Part shown: piece after piece, positions 6,311 to 61,480 of the stretch
Position numbering within the stretch: position 1 is the first letter of the stretch
Layout of the letters: each line of letters opens with the position of its first letter
NCBI GenBank assembly: GCA_020525365.1
Contig: JAIZOF010000001.1
Span: 889,456-953,455 of the forward strand
DNA from: Sulfurovum sp.
GTDB taxonomy: Bacteria; Campylobacterota; Campylobacteria; Campylobacterales; Sulfurovaceae
Direction: 5' to 3'
DNA length: 64,000 nt
Made by a program: the position numbers and the translations under genes
Notes under the pieces: generated by a model
The model's database searches: none
What the model was told of the DNA's origin: nothing
What the model saw: the letters and a program-made list of their open reading frames with translations, nothing else

Positions 6311-7285
6311 ATGTTTGCATATATCATACGGCGTATCTTCTATGCCATCCCCATTCTTATTGGAGTAAACCTTATTACTTTTATACTCTTTTTTATGGTC
6401 AATACTCCTGATGATATGGCTCGTACACAGTTGAATGCCAAGCAGGTAACTCCACAGATGATAAAATCGTGGAAAGAGGAGCGAGGATATGATAAGCCAC
6501 TCTTTTATAATAGAAAACTAGAAGGAGTAGAGAGGTTTACTGACACACTCTTCTTCCATGAGTCGTTGAAGCTTTTTACTTTTGATTTTGGACGATCTGA
6601 TGCTAATCGTGATATTGGTGAAGATATTAAGATGCGTATGGGTCCTTCGCTATACATTGCTGTTCCAACATTTCTGATTGCGCTCATTACCAATATCTCA
6701 CTTGCACTATTGCTTGTTTTATTTCGTGGATCGGTATTTGATGCATCTATGATGGTAATTGCGGTGATGATTATGTCGGTTTCTGGACTTTTCTATATTA
6801 TTGCTGGTCAGGTACTCTTTTCTAAAATCTGGCATTGGGTACCCATTTCGGGTTACGAAGATGATTGGGGCGGCATAAAATTTATTATTCTGCCAGTCAT
6901 GATTGGTATTTTTGCTGGATTGGGAGCAGGAGTGCGCTGGTATCGTTCAATTTTTCTTGAACAGATAAATCAGGACTATGTGCGTACCGCTAGGGCTAAG
7001 GGGCTTTCTGAGTTGCACGTACTTTTTGGACATGTATTGCGAAATGGAATGCTTCCCATTTTGACAGGTGTGGTAGTGATAATTCCTTCTTTATTTATGG
7101 GTAGTCTCATTATGGAGTCTTTCTTTGGCATACCAGGTCTTGGTTCTTACACTATTGACGCAATCAATGCACAGGATTTTTCCATTGTAAAAGCAATGGT
7201 CTTTTTGGGCTCAGTACTTTATATTACAGGGCTCATTTTGACCGATATCTCTTACACACTTTTTGACCCAAGGGTGAAACTATGA
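6311..7285 (+). CDS. ABC transporter permease (YejB/DppB/OppB-type)
   Basis: 324 aa. The start abuts the SBP stop (TAAATG). Motifs include MFAYIIRRIFYAIP, ERGYDKP, FDFGRS and the EAA loop YVRTARAKGLSE. Confidence 0.9.
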   Translation: MFAYIIRRIFYAIPILIGVNLITFILFFMVNTPDDMARTQLNAKQVTPQMIKSWKEERGYDKPLFYNRKLEGVERFTDTLFFHESLKLFTFDFGRSDANRDIGEDIKMRMGPSLYIAVPTFLIALITNISLALLLVLFRGSVFDASMMVIAVMIMSVSGLFYIIAGQVLFSKIWHWVPISGYEDDWGGIKFIILPVMIGIFAGLGAGVRWYRSIFLEQINQDYVRTARAKGLSELHVLFGHVLRNGMLPILTGVVVIIPSLFMGSLIMESFFGIPGLGSYTIDAINAQDFSIVKAMVFLGSVLYITGLILTDISYTLFDPRVKL

Positions 7286-8637
7286 GACTTGCTTTATTGT
7301 GGACTGATATGTTGGTGTGGCTACTTGTTGTTATGGTTGGTGTATGGGGATGGAAGCTTTCACGTTTGGTAGAGGTAAGGCAAAAATGGTATGCTATTTT
7401 CCATTCCAAGATTGCTATGGCATCAGCAATCACACTTATTTTCTATATATTTTTTACACTGCTTGATTCTGTGCACTTTAAAGTGACAAAGGTGGAGCAA
7501 CATAAGGGGATATATACAGGAGAGATTATTTCACTTCTTGATATAGCGATGATACATCAAAAATCTTACAGTGAGCGTACATACTCTGCACCCTTTGCAA
7601 CCACAGAGTATGCCAAATCAATTATTGTAGGAAAGGATGGAGTAAGCAGACAGGAGAATTTACCACTTAGATATGTTTCCATGGAAGATCCATGGAAAAA
7701 GACTATTCCTGTATTGGAGATGGGTGTATTGTTTTCTATAATAGTCATATTATTGCATCTTCTTTGGACAAAAGAGGGTAGTCTCAAAGAGCATATCAGG
7801 GTTGTATGGCAGGGAGAGACAGTATTGCCATGGCGAACTGGGTATGGTATTTTTTCACTTTTTGTTATTGTCTTAACGTGGCTCTATATCATGAGTTTCT
7901 CCTACCATGTTCTAGGTACAGACAAGGTAGGTGGTGATGTGCTGTACGCTTCATTGAAAAGTATACGTACAGGGGTTCTTATTGGCATCTTGACTACACT
8001 GGTAATGCTACCACTTGCTATTTTTCTTGGAGTAAGTGCTGGGTACTTTAGGGGATGGGTAGATGACCTTATTCAGTACCTTTATACTACACTTAGTTCC
8101 ATTCCTGGGGTATTGCTTATTGCTGCTGGGGTATTGATGATGCAGGTGATGATGGAAAATCATACCGACTGGTTTGCCTCGACCGTAGAGCGTTCTGACT
8201 TACGACTACTCTTTCTTATTTTTATTCTTGGTATGACTAGCTGGACAGGACTCTGTCGTCTTTTGCGTGCAGAGACACTGCGCATCTCGCAAATGGACTA
8301 TGTTACTGCTGCTAAAGCTTTTGGGGTAAGTAGATGGTATATTATGGTGCGGCATATTGTGCCTAACCTTATGCATATTGTTCTTATATCAGTAGTATTG
8401 GATTTTTCAGGCTTAGTACTTTCTGAGGCGGTACTCTCTTATGTGGGGATTGGGGTTGATCCGACAATGTACAGTTGGGGAAATATGATTAACCAAGCAA
8501 GGTTAGAGATGGCAAGAGAACCGATGGTTTGGTGGTCGCTCTTCTCCTCTTTTATATTTATGTTCATCTTGGTGCTTGCAGCCAATCTATTATCGGATAG
8601 AGTACAACATGTACTTGACCCAAGAAATAGATTATAA
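7282..8637 (+). CDS. ABC transporter permease (YejE/OppC-type) with a long N-terminal extension
   Basis: 451 aa with an ATGA overlap onto the upstream permease. The C-terminal permease core carries the EAA loop YVTAAKAFGVS. Confidence 0.85.
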   Translation: MRLALLWTDMLVWLLVVMVGVWGWKLSRLVEVRQKWYAIFHSKIAMASAITLIFYIFFTLLDSVHFKVTKVEQHKGIYTGEIISLLDIAMIHQKSYSERTYSAPFATTEYAKSIIVGKDGVSRQENLPLRYVSMEDPWKKTIPVLEMGVLFSIIVILLHLLWTKEGSLKEHIRVVWQGETVLPWRTGYGIFSLFVIVLTWLYIMSFSYHVLGTDKVGGDVLYASLKSIRTGVLIGILTTLVMLPLAIFLGVSAGYFRGWVDDLIQYLYTTLSSIPGVLLIAAGVLMMQVMMENHTDWFASTVERSDLRLLFLIFILGMTSWTGLCRLLRAETLRISQMDYVTAAKAFGVSRWYIMVRHIVPNLMHIVLISVVLDFSGLVLSEAVLSYVGIGVDPTMYSWGNMINQARLEMAREPMVWWSLFSSFIFMFILVLAANLLSDRVQHVLDPRNRL

Positions 8638-8641
8638 GATT

Positions 8642-9187
8642 TTAGCGATCAATGATTGTTTCATCTGCATCAGAACCAGAGATGGGATTATCACGATAAT
8701 CTCTTTCAGACGATATTTTGTCTGATGGACCATTCCCTATGATGATTGGTATGGCAAAGTTTTTAATATCTGGGCTAGGTCGATTGGTTTGTACTTCAAT
8801 ATAGAGTCGAATATAGTACAAAGCATCCTTGTTGCTTGAAGCATCAACAGTAATAGGGAAATGTAACCCATAGGTATCATTTTGTTTTAATGTAAATTGC
8901 TTCCTCCGTTCAAATGTTTTTGGAGGAGATAAAGCTTCATCAAACGAGATATTAACTACTATATTTTCTTCTTCTACAGTATTGTCGACAAAGAACTGTA
9001 TATCAATATCACCTTGCGCACCTGGTTCCATAGAGACTGGTATTGTGTAGCGAATACCAATAGACGCACTCATAGGACTTGAGGTGTCAACAATGGTCTT
9101 TGAGACAGTATTAGAACCTCCACATGCAATTAAAAAGAGTACAATTAAAAAGAGTGTTATACGTACAATATATTTGATTAAGAACAA
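8642..9187 (-). CDS. Paralog 1 of a three-member family of ~180-aa secreted lipoproteins, unknown function
   Basis: 181 aa with lipobox LFLIAC-GG. It shares the core PG..D(I/V)DIQ.F...N(I/M).V...(I/L)DE.L...Q.FTL..N...LHF...L(Y/H)(Y/H)I.L...F.VP..G with ORFs 9298..9864 and 9946..10494. The alternating pattern suggests a beta-sandwich. Confidence 0.7.
   Translation of the reverse strand: MFLIKYIVRITLFLIVLFLIACGGSNTVSKTIVDTSSPMSASIGIRYTIPVSMEPGAQGDIDIQFFVDNTVEEENIVVNISFDEALSPPKTFERRKQFTLKQNDTYGLHFPITVDASSNKDALYYIRLYIEVQTNRPSPDIKNFAIPIIIGNGPSDKISSERDYRDNPISGSDADETIIDR
8678..8707 (-). repeat. 30-nt segment (codons for ERDYRDNPIS) near-identical to 9997..10026
   Basis: Plus-strand agagatgggattatcacgataatctctttc versus tgagatgggattatcacgatagtctctttc, 28 of 30 identical. 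The surrounding paralog DNA is much more diverged. Confidence 0.8.
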
Positions 9188-9297
9188 TATGGACCCCCTT
9201 AAAATTTACTTCATAAATTAAATATACTAAACATCATACTTTATTATATCTTAATCTCTAGTTTTTTAATGGTAGAGAATAAATTATAAGATCTTTT

Positions 9298-9864
9298 TTA
9301 GGGATTAGCAGTCTCCTCTTCAACTTCATTGGAAATACAGACATGCTTACCATTTTTACTAATAACTTTACACCATCCTGTATCTCCTGTATCATATCTT
9401 CCTACGCCAAATGGCACAACAAAACTATAAAAAAATCCAGAAGAATTTTTAATATCAAGACGTATATAATATAGACCGTCCGTATCAGATGTGGCAGTAA
9501 AATGTAATTGATGGGTACCATTTTGTTTTAGCGTAAACTGCTGTTTGGTGAGACTAAGTTGAAGTGTTCCTGTAGTAGATAGGTCTTCATCAATCTGAAG
9601 TTCAACCGTCATGTTTTCTTCTGTATTTTTTTCTATATAAAAATTGGGAAAAATTTGAATATCAATATTGCCATACATACCTGGTTTTGTAGAAGCTGGT
9701 ACTGTATAGTTAATATAGATAGGCGTATTCATTTTTGTATTGGTGCTCATGGCAATCATGCCATTTCTATTATTCGAGGAATTATCCATATTTCCACATG
9801 CAGATGAAAATAGTATAAACAACAAGAATAGTGTGCGTATGATATATGTGGTTGAAAGTAACAT
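9298..9864 (-). CDS. Paralog 2 of the lipoprotein family, with a divergent Cys-bracketed C-terminus
   Basis: 188 aa with lipobox LFSSAC-GN and the same conserved core. The C-terminus is ...GWCKVISKNGKHVCISNEVEEETANP instead of the ERDYRDNPIS tail. Confidence 0.7.
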   Translation of the reverse strand: MLLSTTYIIRTLFLLFILFSSACGNMDNSSNNRNGMIAMSTNTKMNTPIYINYTVPASTKPGMYGNIDIQIFPNFYIEKNTEENMTVELQIDEDLSTTGTLQLSLTKQQFTLKQNGTHQLHFTATSDTDGLYYIRLDIKNSSGFFYSFVVPFGVGRYDTGDTGWCKVISKNGKHVCISNEVEEETANP

Positions 9865-9945
9865 AAAGTAATCCTTTATTATAAATTGTTAAGTTACTAT
9901 ACTGTGTTCAATTTTCTTGACATTGACTAGTAACCTTTTTAAAAA

Positions 9946-10494
9946 TCAAAATGTAGTACCCGCTTGGTCGATAATCTTCTCTTCGGCATTAGAGCTTGAG
10001 ATGGGATTATCACGATAGTCTCTTTCAAGCGGTGCTTTATTTGATGGACCATCTCCTGAAATGATTGGTACGGCAAAGGACATAAAACCTTGATTTTTAA
10101 TTTTAGCAAGAAGGTGAATATGATGTAAAGCATTTCTGTCACTCGAAGGATCAACAATAATATTAAAATGTAGCTTATAAACACGATTTGGATTCAATGT
10201 AAAATATTGTTTAGGTTGAAATGTTCCTGAAATAAATAGACCTTCATCAAGTGAGATATCAACTACCATATTCCCATCTGTAATCTCGGTAAAAAGTTGA
10301 ATATCAACATCGACTCGCATACCTGGTTCTATGGGATTTGATAGTGCATAGGTGATATCAATAGGTGTACCAGTTTTATGGTAGGTGCCTATGGTGGTAC
10401 CTGTTATTGTTTTGGGTGTATATATTTTTTCTAGAAATGCCACAAGCATGAAAGTGCCTACAATCATCCCTAATGCAATTAGTTTTTGTTTCAT
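9946..10494 (-). CDS. Paralog 3 of the family, with a signal anchor or peptide but no lipobox Cys
   Basis: 182 aa. It starts 14 nt downstream of the protease stop and has a GGAG SD. It has the conserved core and a C-terminal tail ERDYRDNPISSSNAEEKIID nearly identical to paralog 1. Confidence 0.7.
   Translation of the reverse strand: MKQKLIALGMIVGTFMLVAFLEKIYTPKTITGTTIGTYHKTGTPIDITYALSNPIEPGMRVDVDIQLFTEITDGNMVVDISLDEGLFISGTFQPKQYFTLNPNRVYKLHFNIIVDPSSDRNALHHIHLLAKIKNQGFMSFAVPIISGDGPSNKAPLERDYRDNPISSSNAEEKIIDQAGTTF
9997..10026 (-). repeat. Partner copy of the 30-nt conserved tail segment at 8678..8707
   Basis: See the partner entry. Coordinates were derived from codon arithmetic on the track ORFs. 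Confidence 0.8.
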
Positions 10495-10508
10495 AATTTC
10501 TCCATTTT

Positions 10509-12119
10509 TTATCGTATAGTAATATTATATGTTCCGCTTGAAGGATTGTAATAGTGTCCTAGGTCTATAAGATAACTACCTCGTTTAAAAAAGTGTTCAA
10601 TACGTACTTGACTTGAAGAGCTTGTTTTTCCGACTATATATTTGAGCGAAGGTGTTATTTGGTAAAGGGTAATACCTAGACTATCACGATTTGAACCGTT
10701 GACCGTAATAGTATAATTACCATTTGTATTAATTTTGAATCGTATATAGCGACGGTTACCAAGTTTATTAGGGGTGCCATAACTTATACTAGTAGATACC
10801 CCCCTTGCACTTTGGTTATGCGATGATCCAGTAGTTTTGGTATAAGGATAACTGTTTTTATGATTGGTACGCTTGGCACCATCAAGACCACCAAAAATAT
10901 CAGTAATGCGTGCAATACTTTCATGTCTAACAATAGTATCAATGGCAGTTGCATCATCAGGTCTGGCTTTCTTGAGCAAGGTAATAAAAGAGAAGATACT
11001 AGTGAATGCGCCAACATTTTTTTCTGCCCCTGTCATCACTTGATGAATTGGACCAAACCCTAAAGAAAGTGTATCAAACGATTCGTCGGTGCCACTGTCA
11101 TATAAGTCATAAAGAATACCTTGTATTGAACTTTCGTTGAACCATCCAGGGTTTCTTATTGAGCTACGATCAATATTTACACTAAAGCCTCTTGATTGTT
11201 GTGATCCTGATGTATCATAGTAAACTGGGTCATTTAGAGCCATAGCAGAAAAGGCATTGCCCCATCCTTCACCAAAAGCAAGACGAATATCTAACATCTG
11301 TCCAAAACCATGACTACCCCCAATACTATCAGAACGAGAGAATTGATCTTCATAATAGTGTCCCCACTCATGGGCAATGACATGATCATCGTATTCATCT
11401 GTATCGTGATCGGCATCTCCAAGAATATATAGTTGACCACCATAATAAGAAGAAGTACCAATCTGACCAAGACTAATGGATCCCGAAGCTGCAACATTAT
11501 TTACAGACCAATTTACTTTCAAAAAAGGGAATGATATTGTTGGGTCGGCAGAAAGTACAAGTTGCATACAAGTATAAATAGTATCAAGCATAGCAAAAGG
11601 TGCTGCAGCTCTTTTTGAACTGTAGCTGTCTCCATCCCACCCTGAAGGGATATTTAGATTTCTTATTTGAGATGATGTTCCAATATGAGCCAATGAACCA
11701 TCTGAGACATAAAGTGCATCACCTCTGGTGTTATCCACAACCTGAACATGCCAATTTTGTTGGTAATTTTTGTATAGTTTTGCCAATACACGCACCTTAA
11801 TATCAGTATTTTCAGGCACTGTCGCACTATATCTTCCATTATTATCAGTTATGGTTGTTGCAACAGGTCGACCTTCTTTATTAAGGAGCTGTACAACAGT
11901 ACCACGCACTGGTTTTCGGGATATATTGTCATAATCAAGCCCTCTGGCTGACCCTGGTACAAAATCATAGGTAACTGTACCACTGATTTCTACTACAGGA
12001 CCTTTATTATCTTGGTTTTGAGGAGTCTTGGTTTCATTAATCCCTTCTCCACATGCAGATAAAAAGAATATAAGTAATGAGAAAACTATATATATGTTAT
12101 ATTTTACGTTAAATGGCAT
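10509..12119 (-). CDS. Lipoprotein zinc metalloprotease (gluzincin-like HExxH...E), with an N-terminal CarboxypepD_reg-like beta-sandwich and a C-terminal PPC-like beta domain
   Basis: 536 aa with lipobox FFLSAC-GE. VRGTVVQLLNKEGRPVATTITDNNGRYSATV resembles a carboxypeptidase-regulatory fold. HVIAHEWGHYY (HEWGH at nt 11358..11372) is followed 29 residues later by FGEGWGNAF. The C-terminal ~100 aa resemble a pre-peptidase C-terminal domain. Confidence 0.7.
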   Translation of the reverse strand: MPFNVKYNIYIVFSLLIFFLSACGEGINETKTPQNQDNKGPVVEISGTVTYDFVPGSARGLDYDNISRKPVRGTVVQLLNKEGRPVATTITDNNGRYSATVPENTDIKVRVLAKLYKNYQQNWHVQVVDNTRGDALYVSDGSLAHIGTSSQIRNLNIPSGWDGDSYSSKRAAAPFAMLDTIYTCMQLVLSADPTISFPFLKVNWSVNNVAASGSISLGQIGTSSYYGGQLYILGDADHDTDEYDDHVIAHEWGHYYEDQFSRSDSIGGSHGFGQMLDIRLAFGEGWGNAFSAMALNDPVYYDTSGSQQSRGFSVNIDRSSIRNPGWFNESSIQGILYDLYDSGTDESFDTLSLGFGPIHQVMTGAEKNVGAFTSIFSFITLLKKARPDDATAIDTIVRHESIARITDIFGGLDGAKRTNHKNSYPYTKTTGSSHNQSARGVSTSISYGTPNKLGNRRYIRFKINTNGNYTITVNGSNRDSLGITLYQITPSLKYIVGKTSSSSQVRIEHFFKRGSYLIDLGHYYNPSSGTYNITIR

Positions 12120-12270
12120 ATAAATATCCTTGTTATTACAATTAAATATAAAAACTATACTAGCTTTATCATAAAAATTTAATTAAAAAAGTGTAATATG
12201 ATTATTCAATTATAAAATATAAATAGATAGCACGGGATATAGATTTATCAAAAAACTATTGATAATATAT

Positions 12271-12276
12271 TATAAT
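12271..12276 (+). promoter_or_regulatory. Candidate -10 box (TATAAT) 6 nt upstream of the ATPase ATG; possible leaderless or very short-leader transcript
   Basis: tataat-ttggtt-ATG. There is no purine-rich SD before ATG 12283 or before TTG 12259. Confidence 0.25.
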
Positions 12277-12282
12277 TTGGTT

Positions 12283-13902
12283 ATGAAAACAGTAATTTTA
12301 GAGATACAAGATTTGTCTCTTGGTACCAAAAATAGAAGTATAGTCTCCCATGTTTCTTTACAGGCTAGACAAGGAGAGGTTTTTGCACTTATTGGAGAAA
12401 GTGGTAGTGGAAAATCACTTACCTCTTTGGCAATCATGCGGCTACTGCCACAAGCAATAAAAGTTTTAGGTGGAGATGTGTTACTTGGAGGTAAATCACT
12501 TTTTGCATTGCCCGAATATGCGATGCAAAAAATACGTGGAAAACATATTGCAATGATTTTTCAAGAACCAATGTCAGCACTCAATCCAGTGATAACCATT
12601 GGAGAGCAGGTGGCGGAAGTACTCAAATTACATTTAAGGCTCAGTAGCAAGGAGGCAAAAGAGCGGGTAATCTCACTTTTTGAAGAGGTAGCATTGCCTG
12701 ACGCTACAAAACGATATGACTGGTATCCTCATCAGCTTTCTGGTGGACAGAAACAGCGGGTAATGATTGCTATGGCACTAGCATGTGAGCCAGAGTTGCT
12801 TATTGCCGATGAACCAACCACTGCACTTGATGTGACTACACAAGCACAAATACTTTCTCTTTTGAACAAGATTAAAAAAGAGCGTCAACTTTCTATGATT
12901 TTTATTACCCACGATATGGCAGTGGTTGCACAAGTAGCAGATAGGATTGCAGTAATGCATGGTGGAGAGATTGTTGAAGAGGCAGACCGTGAGCACTTTT
13001 TTTCCTCCCCAGTGCACCCTTATACAAAAAAGCTACTACAAGATACAATAGGAGAAAAAGAAAGCAGGGAGTATGGAGTAGGAGAGAGGCTGCTTAAAAT
13101 CAATAATCTTAAGGTCTATTTTCCTATTAAAAAAGGATTTTTTCAGCGTACAACTAGGTATATTAAGGCGGTAGATAGAGTGACACTTGCTATTTCTAAA
13201 GGTAAAACTCTTGCACTTGTGGGAGAGTCTGGTAGTGGAAAGAGTACTTTGGGACAGGCAATTCTTTCTCTGGTACCAATTACTGCAGGCTGTATCCATT
13301 ACAAGGGTATAGATTTAACTATGCTTTCAGATAGAAAGAAGCAACATTACAGACAGAAGATACAGGTAATTTTTCAAGATCCTTTTTCTGCGCTTAACCC
13401 ACGTATGAACATTGCGGAGATACTTAGAGAAGGTATGGAAAGTTTACAAGTTGGTCCTAAAAAGAGAGAAACACAAGATATCTACATGAAGCAACTTTTA
13501 AAATCGGTAGAGATGGATCCCGAGATGATCTATCGTTATCCACATGAATTTTCTGGTGGACAACGACAACGTATTGGTATTGCGAGAGCATTGGCAGTTG
13601 AGCCCGAACTAATTATTTGTGATGAGCCAACCTCTGCACTTGATGTTTCGATACGATTAGAGATACTTTCATTACTAAGAAAGCTTCAGGCTGAAAGGGG
13701 AGTATCGTATCTGTTTATTACTCATGATCTCTCTATTGTCTCCTCTATTGCCGATGAAGTAGCGGTGATGAAGGAGGGGAAGATTGTTGAACAAGGAACA
13801 GTAGATCAGGTGATGCAGAAGCCAAAACATGCTTATACACAGACCTTACTTTCGTCAGTACCGACATTGATACAAAAGAGAAGATATGACCATACTATTT
13901 GA
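12283..13902 (+). CDS. Fused double ABC ATPase (YejF / DppD-DppF-type) of the peptide importer
   Basis: Two complete cassettes. Walker A GESGSGKS occurs twice. Signatures are LSGGQKQR and FSGGQRQR. Walker B motifs are [12 protein letters not shown] and [15 protein letters not shown] 12283 ([13 protein letters not shown]) is preferred over the track TTG at 12259. Confidence 0.9.
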
Positions 13903-59836: not shown

Positions 59837-61480
59837 TTGACTAAAGGTACAATTTTGGAACAACAAGATTTAAATAAACGATTACTTTTGGCCCTCGCTC
59901 TCTCCTTCCTTGTATTTACAGGCTACAGTTATCTCTTTGTGCCACAAAAATCACTATCTTCTTCCAAGCAGACACAGGTGGTATCAAAAGTGGTACCATC
60001 ACCGGTACTTTCTTCTACAAAAAAAGTACCTAGTACTGTACAATCTACCTCAGATAAAACAATTAAGAATATACCTGTGATTACATCAAATATATTGTTA
60101 ACAATTGTTTCCAATACATTCAAAATGGATATTGATAAGCTTGGACGTATTGTACAGTTTGAGCTTTTGGAGAAAAAATATCAAAATACAGAGGGACATA
60201 ACCTTCAAATATTAGGTAAAGATAAGGCAAAACCACTTGAAATCCGTTTTACTGACACAGCATTAAATGAAGAAGCATTTAAAACACCCTATATCCCATC
60301 TGTAGATGGTGTACAGGATGCTAGAAATAAAGCAGTGACAGTGACATTGACACAGACACTTTCCAAGGTTACTGTGACCAAAAAACTAACAGTACAACCT
60401 AGCGGTGCCTATAGATTAGAGGTTAAGCTGAGCAATCCAGTATCTTATTTTGTTACACCAGGACACAGACCTATGGCAGATACATCTATGTATATGCTCG
60501 TGCGTGGTGCGTTGGTCAAGACGCCCGATGGTGTTGTTAAGACTATAGAGGATGGTGATGCCAAGGGAGATGAAGTATTTAGAAATGCTCTCATTGCTTC
60601 GGCATTTGATCGCTATGTGACAACAATGTTTTATAGCTTTGAGAAGAAGATGAATGTTTCTATTTTAAAAGAGGGAGAGGGAGAACCATTAATTTTTATA
60701 GCAGGAAAACCAGAATTGATATTGGGTGGATATATTGGTCCCAAAGAGTATAAAACCCTTGAAGCAATTAATCCTGAGTTGACAGACGCAATTGAGTTTG
60801 GATGGTTTACTTTCCTTTCAAAACCGTTTTTTAAAGTACTCTTGTGGATTCATAACCATATTGGTAACTGGGGATGGGCAATCATTCTTTTTACATTGCT
60901 GGTTAAACTGATACTTTTTCCTCTTTCTTATAAAGGGATGATGTCAATGCAGAAGCTTAAAGATTTGGCACCAAAGATGAAAGAGATTAGAGAGAAGTAT
61001 AAAGATGATTCAGCAAAACTTAATATGAAGATGATGGAGATGTACAAGAAGCATGGCGCTAATCCAATGGGTGGATGTCTACCAATGTTATTACAAATTC
61101 CAGTCTTTTTTGCCCTCTATCGTGTACTTCTTAATGCCAATGAACTTCAAGGTGCTGTATGGATTCCAGCATGGATAGAAAATCTTGCTACAGCTGATCC
61201 TTATTATATTCTTCCTATTTTAATGGGTTTTTCAATGTGGTTTCAGCAAAAGATTACACCAAATAACTTTACAGATCCACTACAGGAGAAGATTTTCCAA
61301 TTCTTTCCTGTATTAATGGCGTTAATGTTTATCATCATGCCTTTTCCTTCAGGGTTAGTGCTCTATTGGGTGGTTAATAATATCTTTACTATCGGACAAC
61401 AGTATGTGATTAATAATGCATATCAGAAGCAGAAAGTATCTGTGGTTGTAGCAGACAAGAAAAGAGGAGAACTCAAATGA
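59837..61480 (+). CDS. yidC: Membrane protein insertase YidC
   Basis: 547 aa. N-terminal TM, a large periplasmic domain and a C-terminal 60-kDa IMP core (GCLPMLLQIPVFFALY). The start is TTG 59837 or the TTG at 59855. Confidence 0.9.
   Translation: MTKGTILEQQDLNKRLLLALALSFLVFTGYSYLFVPQKSLSSSKQTQVVSKVVPSPVLSSTKKVPSTVQSTSDKTIKNIPVITSNILLTIVSNTFKMDIDKLGRIVQFELLEKKYQNTEGHNLQILGKDKAKPLEIRFTDTALNEEAFKTPYIPSVDGVQDARNKAVTVTLTQTLSKVTVTKKLTVQPSGAYRLEVKLSNPVSYFVTPGHRPMADTSMYMLVRGALVKTPDGVVKTIEDGDAKGDEVFRNALIASAFDRYVTTMFYSFEKKMNVSILKEGEGEPLIFIAGKPELILGGYIGPKEYKTLEAINPELTDAIEFGWFTFLSKPFFKVLLWIHNHIGNWGWAIILFTLLVKLILFPLSYKGMMSMQKLKDLAPKMKEIREKYKDDSAKLNMKMMEMYKKHGANPMGGCLPMLLQIPVFFALYRVLLNANELQGAVWIPAWIENLATADPYYILPILMGFSMWFQQKITPNNFTDPLQEKIFQFFPVLMALMFIIMPFPSGLVLYWVVNNIFTIGQQYVINNAYQKQKVSVVVADKKRGELK

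Follow-up and report, generated by a model that had tools for sequence, protein, structure and literature searches.

A predicted lipid-anchored thermolysin-like protease and a small exported partner as a probable two-gene envelope module, expanded to three partners in a Sulfurovum species

The stretch analyzed here comprises 64,000 nucleotides (nt) of Sulfurovum sp. DNA (GenBank assembly GCA_020525365.1, contig JAIZOF010000001.1, positions 889,456 to 953,455 of the forward strand) and is termed the window throughout. Positions 8642-12119 of the window hold a cassette of four genes, encoding a predicted lipoprotein metalloprotease and three small paralogous proteins, A, B and C. Homologues of the protease and of a single small partner are found side by side across several phyla, and the two very probably constitute a widespread, conserved two-gene functional module. 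The cassette would be a lineage-specific expansion of this module to one protease and three partners. For the partner itself the favored reading is that of an inhibitor, latency factor or maturation aid acting on the protease in trans, to which a probability of roughly 0.4 is given.

A preliminary description of this DNA had drawn the cassette as an undescribed envelope system of four co-oriented genes, headed by a lipoprotein zinc metalloprotease. The open reading frames (ORFs) match those positions exactly and all lie on the minus strand (Table 1). The spacing of 14 nt between the stop codon of the protease and the start of A was confirmed in the sequence, as was a Shine-Dalgarno sequence (GGAG or AAGG-type) 5′ of each of A, B and C. 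An LSAC lipobox, the HEWGH motif and a downstream Glu are present in the protease, and the lipoboxes described for the two further paralogs were located as SSAC in B and LIAC in C.

Conservation of the protease-partner gene pair

Six-frame ORFs of 86 loci, cited below by number with the prefix L, were searched with profiles of the protease and partner families. With the first profile a partner was located directly downstream of the protease and on the same strand in 74 of the 86 loci. An enriched profile recovered three further protease-partner loci, and most of the rest end at a contig boundary, giving a downstream partner in ∼76 of 80 usable loci (∼95%). Loci bearing the pair derive from Campylobacterota, Gamma- and Alphaproteobacteria, Nitrospirota and Desulfobacterota. 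The gap between the two genes has a median of 14 nt and is 30 nt or less in 54 of 66 cases. Neighboring ORFs were also clustered, and the partner was the sole conserved neighbor (73 of 83 loci), the next cluster reaching 20. The reverse test, started from three of the most divergent partners, placed a protease homologue directly upstream in 3/3. No natural fusion of protease and partner was found among 173 retrieved proteins. From its arrangement the pair is evidently co-transcribed.

The functional link between the protease and the small proteins that had been put forward in the preliminary description is therefore upheld by the co-occurrence survey. Its four-gene unit fared less uniformly: the linkage of protease and partner stands, and the trio of partners does not, the unit elsewhere being a two-gene pair. 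Among the loci surveyed, one protease with three partners was found only in the Sulfurovum species of the window. The opposite stoichiometry, two protease paralogs in tandem with one partner behind them, occurs in ∼19 of 80 species-level loci (including L011, L016, L021, L022, L024, L026, L028, L030-L032, L038, L040, L042, L059, L068, L074 and L080).

A second copy of the module was located in the sister metagenome-assembled genome (MAG) GCA_020525255.1 (L089:1800-4236). The protease of this copy is frameshifted, its HExxH motif is changed to YEWGM and its Glu motif from GEGW to NGGW. The adjoining partner-like protein of 210 amino acids (aa) has lost both the lipobox Cys and the tail. This single case looks like co-decay of protease and partner. 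Two small genes, paralogous to each other and bearing a YGNYYQWGRPADGHE motif, flank the copy.

Sequence and structure of the protease

The protease consists of a signal peptide and lipobox, a linker of ∼20 aa, an N-terminal CarboxypepD_reg-like β-sandwich (∼aa 42-157), a helical thermolysin-like catalytic domain (∼aa 173-400) and a C-terminal PPC-like β-sandwich (∼aa 426-535). The three domains were delimited on an AlphaFold model with a predicted local distance difference test score (pLDDT) of 83.9 and a predicted TM-score (pTM) of 0.86. In the model the HEWGH motif sits on helix 245-260 and E284 on helix 278-295, with N288 four residues on. By analogy with gluzincins E284 is the predicted third zinc ligand.

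The catalytic core was matched by Foldseek to the M4 vibriolysin MCP-02, ProA and LasB (probability 1.0, TMt 0.51-0.61). The M4 matches comprised 3nqx and 3nqz (TMt 0.57-0.61), 6ya1, 9h0x and the LasB entries 9fqd and 8cr7, all at probability 1.0. The C-terminal domain was matched to the collagen-binding domains of ColG/ColH and to the Bacillus anthracis PPC domain 5sv5 (TMt 0.73), the PPC matches also reaching probability 1.0, with no Pfam PPC match. At E ≤ 1 Pfam returned β-sandwich domains alone for the protease, including a weak CarboxypepD_reg match at aa 67-131, and neither Peptidase_M4, Peptidase_M4_C nor M36. The NCBIfam M36 model NF038111 gave an E-value of 0.0014 that was local to aa 240-295, at 16 bits against a cut-off of 1700 bits. 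Searches of PDB sequences with the single protease sequence and with a profile gave nothing meaningful. Because the HExxH and Glu motifs are conserved and Foldseek matches M4 enzymes without a Pfam M4 or M36 match, the protease is, as judged from the model, a divergent clan MA(E) gluzincin of thermolysin-like fold and not a sequence-level member of M4 or M36. Proteolysis is predicted.

In M4 and M36 enzymes the propeptide serves folding and latency. No FTP/PepSY propeptide was detected in the protease, either with Pfam or in the model, where the N-terminal sandwich directly follows the lipobox linker. A typical M4 precursor comprises a signal peptide, propeptide, catalytic domain and PPC domain (PMC3327674).

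Protease homologues numbered 4079 at E ≤ 0.001 among 8000 scored candidates. The best 120 are 45-59% identical to the protease, apart from a 99% identical copy from the same species. At least 557 matching stretches were found in a collection holding one genome per species. The family extends over Campylobacterota, Gammaproteobacteria (Kangiella, Psychrosphaera, Thiothrix), Alphaproteobacteria (Hellea, Hirschia), Nitrospirota and Desulfobacterota. Its members are annotated at source as “hypothetical” or by an immunoglobulin (Ig), PKD or cadherin domain, and as nothing else. Two divergent members (L086:2224-3936 and L087:77-1786) have a permuted domain order compared with the window protease, the PPC-like domain coming first, at the N-terminus, and the N-terminal sandwich and the catalytic domain after it.

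Sequence and structure of the partner proteins

The three paralogs are clearly homologous, with pairwise BLASTP E-values of 1e-16 to 1e-40, identities of 42% (A/C) and 30% (A/B) and 35 invariant columns across all three. The core motif given in the preliminary description was right as to this homology. Its spacing was slightly off, the final motif reading F-x-(V/I)-P-x-x-x-G, and C has KQFTL in place of Q.FTL. Against the partner profile B and C scored E-values of 8.9e-36 and 5.2e-38. Paralog A is the copy most similar to the single partner of other genomes. Since A, B and C are mutually closest among all retrieved partners, comparison of their sequences indicates that they arose by duplication within the lineage. 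At the DNA level the 3′ halves of A and C, from FAVPII to the tail and including a lineage-specific ERDYRDNPIS linker, are far more alike than the 5′ halves, which suggests partial gene conversion or strong shared constraint.

A word-indexed homologue search with C returned the same-species copy alone, and with a 47-sequence profile nine proteins. An exhaustive profile search gave 53 representative partner clusters, all of ∼160-190 aa. Within Campylobacterota the partner evolves faster than the protease, with identities of ∼30% versus ∼50%. Conservation was judged on the 47-member alignment and on a wider set of 73 sequences. The conserved elements are a signal peptide, a KPGAPVDIxY loop and strand, GLYYIRL and RAFAVPVYVG strands, a variable basic linker and a C-terminal tail. 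The tail follows the motif h-h-S-h-x-A-x-E-E/T-h, is conserved across phyla and has the consensus G-E-N-I-S-V-S-x-A-x-E-T-I. The A-x-E core of the tail was found in 61 of the 71 complete partners, which represent several phyla, and its median distance from the C-terminus is 5 residues. The partner alignments show no conserved His, Cys or Met, and a metallochaperone role was rejected as unlikely on this ground.

Lipoboxes were assigned with the pattern [LVI][ASTVI][GAS]C. The N-terminus of A is hydrophobic and without Cys, marking a signal peptide or signal anchor and not a lipoprotein. Partner signals are mostly of the signal-peptidase-I type in Campylobacterota and mostly lipoboxes in Gamma- and Alphaproteobacteria and Nitrospirota. 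Since the partners of Campylobacterota usually have cleavable non-lipoprotein signals, the lipoboxes of B and C would be a secondary gain within that phylum. Outside Campylobacterota a single partner usually carries a lipobox (L037, L047, L048, L057, L058, L061, L063, L066, L068, L071-L074, L077, L081 and L083).

Paralog A was modeled with AlphaFold at a pLDDT of 88.7. In the model an N-terminal helix is followed by a β-sandwich of nine strands (aa 28-146) and an extended tail, in agreement with the β-sandwich guessed earlier for the small proteins. Foldseek returned generic Ig-like, MG, GAE and FixG-related matches to A only. Neither the catalytic domain nor the paralogs could be placed in a family by Pfam, NCBIfam and PADLOC scans of all four cassette proteins, 47 partner homologues scanned with Pfam likewise showed no credible family, and the PDB sequence search with single sequences and a profile gave nothing meaningful for the paralogs. 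The earlier statement that the small proteins can be assigned to no family accordingly holds for hidden Markov model and PDB sequence searches, with Foldseek adding generic folds alone. Derivation of the partner from a sandwich domain of the protease was considered and rejected, profile-profile comparison showing no relation (probability 2.6%). A role in a defence system was likewise rejected, PADLOC giving no match.

Layout of the cassette and its transporter setting

The features located in and around the cassette are listed in Table 1. The AT-rich region between the divergent protease and ATPase genes showed promoter-like matches at consensus level only, and promoter and terminator scans inside the cassette gave nothing beyond shuffled sequence. 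No tRNA or Rfam element was found in scans of the whole window. A second Sulfurovum MAG (GCA_020525305.1) has the identical cassette layout at 99% identity. Relative to the window its protease gene differs by 12 nt and 3 aa and its A gene by 10 nt and 2 aa, the changes being mostly synonymous.

Table 1. Positions of the cassette genes, their sequence motifs and the flanking features in the window
Feature	Position	Strand	Remarks
Metalloprotease gene	10509-12119	minus	ORF, 536 aa
Protease lipobox LSAC (aa 20-23; Cys23, then Gly)	12051-12062	minus	Cys23 kept in at least 90% of 62 aligned homologues
HEWGH zinc-binding/catalytic motif (aa 250-254; H250, E251, H254)	11358-11372	minus	Invariant in 62 homologues
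GEGWGNAFS (aa 283-291; E284, N288)	11247-11273	minus	E284, G285 and N288 invariant in 62 homologues
Paralog A gene	9946-10494	minus	ORF, 182 aa
Paralog A tail NPISSSNAEEKIID	9967-10008	minus	Fits family consensus GENISVSxAxETI
Paralog B gene	9298-9864	minus	ORF, 188 aa
Paralog B lipobox SSAC (aa 20-23)	9796-9807	minus	Looser but acceptable lipobox
Paralog B variant tail VCISNEVEEE, two Cys	9313-9342	minus	
Paralog C gene	8642-9187	minus	ORF, 181 aa, TTG start
Paralog C lipobox LIAC (aa 19-22)	9122-9133	minus	
Paralog C tail NPISGSDADETIID	8648-8689	minus	
Protease-ATPase divergent intergenic region, AT-rich	12120-12258		Presumed promoter region for both genes
Family-5 solute-binding protein, 727 aa	4127-6310	plus	Context only
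First ABC permease	6311-7285	plus	Context only
Second ABC permease	7282-8637	plus	Context only
Fused double ABC ATPase, best match YejF	12259-13902	plus	E 3.5e-175, 583 bits versus 834-bit cut-off

The flanking genes encode an ATP-binding cassette (ABC) importer of the Opp/Dpp/Nik/Yej type, with a family-5 binding protein, two BPD_transp_1 permeases and an ATPase with an oligo_HPY region. No substrate (peptide, nickel or opine) was assigned to it because all NCBIfam equivalog cut-offs were missed. At the C-terminus of the binding protein a hydrophobic segment, LYGFIVILLLFFIGLY, precedes basic residues and may anchor the protein in the membrane. In the second permease ∼200 aa are added N-terminally to the region that matches OppC/NikC-type permease models. 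A second ORF of 547 aa, at 59837-61480, was considered as a relative of the ATPase and found to be unrelated.

The cassette splits the ABC gene set, with the permeases on one side and the ATPase on the other. It is antisense to both and therefore interrupts the cluster and is not co-transcribed with it. Six Sulfurovaceae loci (L014, L029, L039, L041, L046 and L056) have an orthologue of the YejF-like ATPase as the gene immediately 5′ of the protease, in the same orientation. In a neighbor-joining tree the proteases of these six loci and the window form one seven-member clade. The gene order in L039 is ATPase, protease, partner, HAD and POR. In the window it is binding protein, permease, permease, the inverted cassette (C, B, A, protease), ATPase, HAD and POR, so that relative to L039 the cassette has been relocated to the opposite side of the ATPase and inverted. 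In L029 amtB and glnB, and no permeases, lie upstream of the ATPase. Being confined to the seven-member clade, with HAD and POR genes shared in L039, the ATPase adjacency would represent subclade synteny that was rearranged in the window. The other ∼70 pair loci mostly gave no ABC match; in six of them the one match was weak and generic, to an ABC ATPase (E 1e-15 to 1e-22). No binding-protein or permease match was found in these ∼70 loci outside the subclade. With the cassette antisense to the ABC genes and the importer not conserved elsewhere, the placement of the cassette in a peptide-uptake operon that had been proposed from this stretch did not hold.

Function of the partner

The preliminary description had offered three roles for the paralogs: cognate inhibitors or immunity proteins of the protease, substrates or pro-proteins whose peptides are re-imported by the flanking transporter, and surface-layer or adhesin subunits matured by the protease. 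The first is the most plausible of these and is what we predict. An inhibitor or chaperone acting in trans is favored because a thermolysin-type envelope enzyme without a prodomain needs control of its latency, and because there is good precedent for small exported inhibitors whose genes adjoin that of the protease, in AprA/AprI, the KLIKK peptidases with their potempins and the Listeria metzincin described below.

In the proposed mechanism, which we infer as regards complex formation, inhibition, the role of the tail and localization, the first gene of the module would supply a lipid-anchored gluzincin without a covalent propeptide, its core held between two β-sandwiches. The second gene, on the same transcript, would supply a small exported Ig-like sandwich with the KPGAP loop and the C-terminal tail. 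The partner would bind the protease one-to-one in the periplasm, in the manner of a prodomain supplied in trans, and would keep the enzyme latent, possibly aiding its folding, until the site of action is reached. The tail, a candidate active-site plug, would lie in the active-site cleft with the conserved Glu or the C-terminus near the zinc. Paralog A would be soluble or anchored in the inner membrane, like the partners of the nearest relatives. B and C, with their gained lipoboxes, would reside on the same membrane face as the protease. A fuller version of this scheme is put forward with some reserve: the pair would represent two new families, a propeptide-less lipid-anchored thermolysin-like peptidase and an Ig-fold trans regulator whose A-x-E tail plugs the active site and replaces the M4/M36 prodomain. 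In this lineage one soluble and two lipid-anchored forms of the regulator would have arisen, by which a single protease is controlled in different compartments of the envelope.

Several points weigh against inhibition in trans. The tail has a pLDDT of 78-88 and forms β-bridges in the monomer model; being confidently placed there, it may pack on its own domain, and its conservation could be structural and not that of an interface. The partner fold resembles no known protease-inhibitor fold in Foldseek. The N-terminal sandwich of the protease could itself confer latency. The variable stoichiometry, 2:1 in ∼19 loci and 1:3 here, suits an adaptor at least as well. A partner acting as adaptor or activator, a role absent from the preliminary description, is the main rival, a possible if doubtful explanation: the tail would dock to the protease while the more variable sandwich recruits substrates or positions the enzyme, in the manner of NlpI with Prc or LbcA with CtpA, and each of the three paralogs would direct the protease to its own set of substrates or its own location. 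Such a pair would equally be expected to show the strict synteny and tight gene spacing, the faster evolution of the partner is consistent with it, and A and C have diverged much less in the tail and 3′ half than in the body. The best-conserved positions besides the tail, however, lie in the sandwich (the KPGAP loop and the GLYYIRL and FAVPVYVG strands), which is unexpected for a body that diversifies its cargo. An adaptor also leaves unexplained why a propeptide-less thermolysin-like enzyme is harmless in the periplasm.

The remaining explanations are less probable still. Cleavage of the small proteins by the protease, for example in the Lys-rich linker, with import of the released peptide or tail by the adjoining ABC importer, is improbable. 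It would draw on the location of the cassette between permease and ATPase genes, on the ATPase orthologue adjoining the protease in all seven subclade members and on the succession of a variable basic linker and a conserved C-terminal peptide. This produce-process-import role is weakened because the link to the transporter is limited to the seven-member subclade, leaving the transporter outside the conserved module, and because the cassette runs opposite to the ABC genes. The adjacency in L039 is moreover accompanied by shared HAD and POR genes, the ATPase of L029 has no neighboring permease, and the importer scores below every equivalog cut-off and has no substrate assigned. A folded domain of 120 aa with a tail conserved across phyla is also ill-suited to the precursor of a signalling peptide. 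Even less probable is that the paralogs are structural subunits of the surface (adhesin, S-layer or envelope scaffold) that depend on the protease for maturation or anchoring. An exported Ig-like fold and the lipid anchors of B and C would fit such a role. The partner is nevertheless a single small domain without repeats and with no anchoring or polymerization signal beyond the lipobox, most genomes have one copy, and in Campylobacterota it is usually of the soluble periplasmic type. No surface-assembly pathway is suggested by the neighborhood, and the proposed surface-layer or adhesin subunits found no support. That the genes are adjacent by descent alone, with products that do not act together, is very unlikely: adjacency, shared strand and the median 14-nt gap are kept across five groups while other neighbors change, and the pair decays together in L089.

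If the partner is a dedicated regulator, the peptidase would represent one new family and the inhibitor or adaptor another. The two are widespread among Gram-negative bacteria from marine, sulfidic and host-associated settings, with no annotation other than hypothetical or Ig/PKD-domain protein. Inhibition in trans, if true, would provide a further route to latency for a thermolysin-type enzyme without a covalent propeptide, and the three-partner locus would be a natural experiment in regulator diversification. As a system the module opens no new category, and the suggested connection with peptide import is tenuous. The three paralogs and the transporter setting are specific to the lineage, and the two-gene module is the more interesting object.

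Comparison with known systems

A literature search on Sulfurovum lipoprotein metalloproteases and on the HEWGH motif found nothing relevant. With no relevant paper and no Pfam, NCBIfam, PADLOC or PDB sequence match, the view of the module as undescribed is maintained.

The protease shares with the M4/M36 gluzincins (vibriolysin MCP-02, LasB, ProA) the HExxH motif, the Glu on the next helix and the E-x-x-x-N/D spacing. The thermolysin-like catalytic fold is also that of M4 enzymes, many marine examples of which have a C-terminal PPC-like domain (PMC3327674). It differs from M4/M36 enzymes in having no Pfam M4/M36 match and no FTP/PepSY propeptide, in being lipid-anchored rather than secreted, in its N-terminal CarboxypepD_reg-like sandwich and in the paired downstream gene.

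In the Tannerella forsythia KLIKK peptidases, the potempin is a small exported protein, often a lipoprotein, that is encoded adjacent to and co-transcribed with the peptidase (PMC9890683). The window resembles this in having small exported partners encoded beside a protease. Potempins are β-barrels of 98-132 aa (OB or eight-stranded up-and-down) that are encoded upstream of the peptidase and inhibit via loops (PMC9890683), whereas the partner here is a nine-strand Ig-like sandwich of ∼150 aa with a C-terminal tail, its gene is downstream and inhibition is predicted only. No sequence or fold similarity between potempins and the partner was detected by PDB sequence profile search or Foldseek.

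The serralysin AprA is likewise a metalloprotease encoded beside a small exported protein: the gene adjacent to aprA encodes AprI/Inh, a periplasmic inhibitor with a signal peptide that binds the active site and contacts the zinc (PMC4070987). AprI is a β-barrel whose processed N-terminus reaches the zinc (PMC4070987). The partner differs in its fold and in having a variable post-signal N-terminus, its conserved element being the C-terminal tail, and AprA is a metzincin, in contrast to the gluzincin of the window. In fold and tail the partner differs from described inhibitors.

In Listeria a metzincin is reportedly encoded beside a TIMP-like lipoprotein. Protealysin and emfourin are said to be an M4-type protease and a small protein inhibitor encoded in a bicistronic operon, both intracellular, with an inhibitor that lacks a signal peptide. 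The two-gene operon of an M4-type protease and a small protein is the point of likeness, with no similarity detected to the partner, and the window pair differs in being exported. NlpI-Prc and LbcA-CtpA are pairs in which a tetratricopeptide repeat (TPR) lipoprotein adaptor controls the substrates of a soluble serine protease. They too join an envelope protease with a dedicated partner, an arrangement that suits variable stoichiometry. In the window the protease itself is a lipoprotein and its partner an Ig-like domain. A protease with a dedicated small partner is a known kind of system, of which both families described here appear to be uncharacterized and unannotated members.

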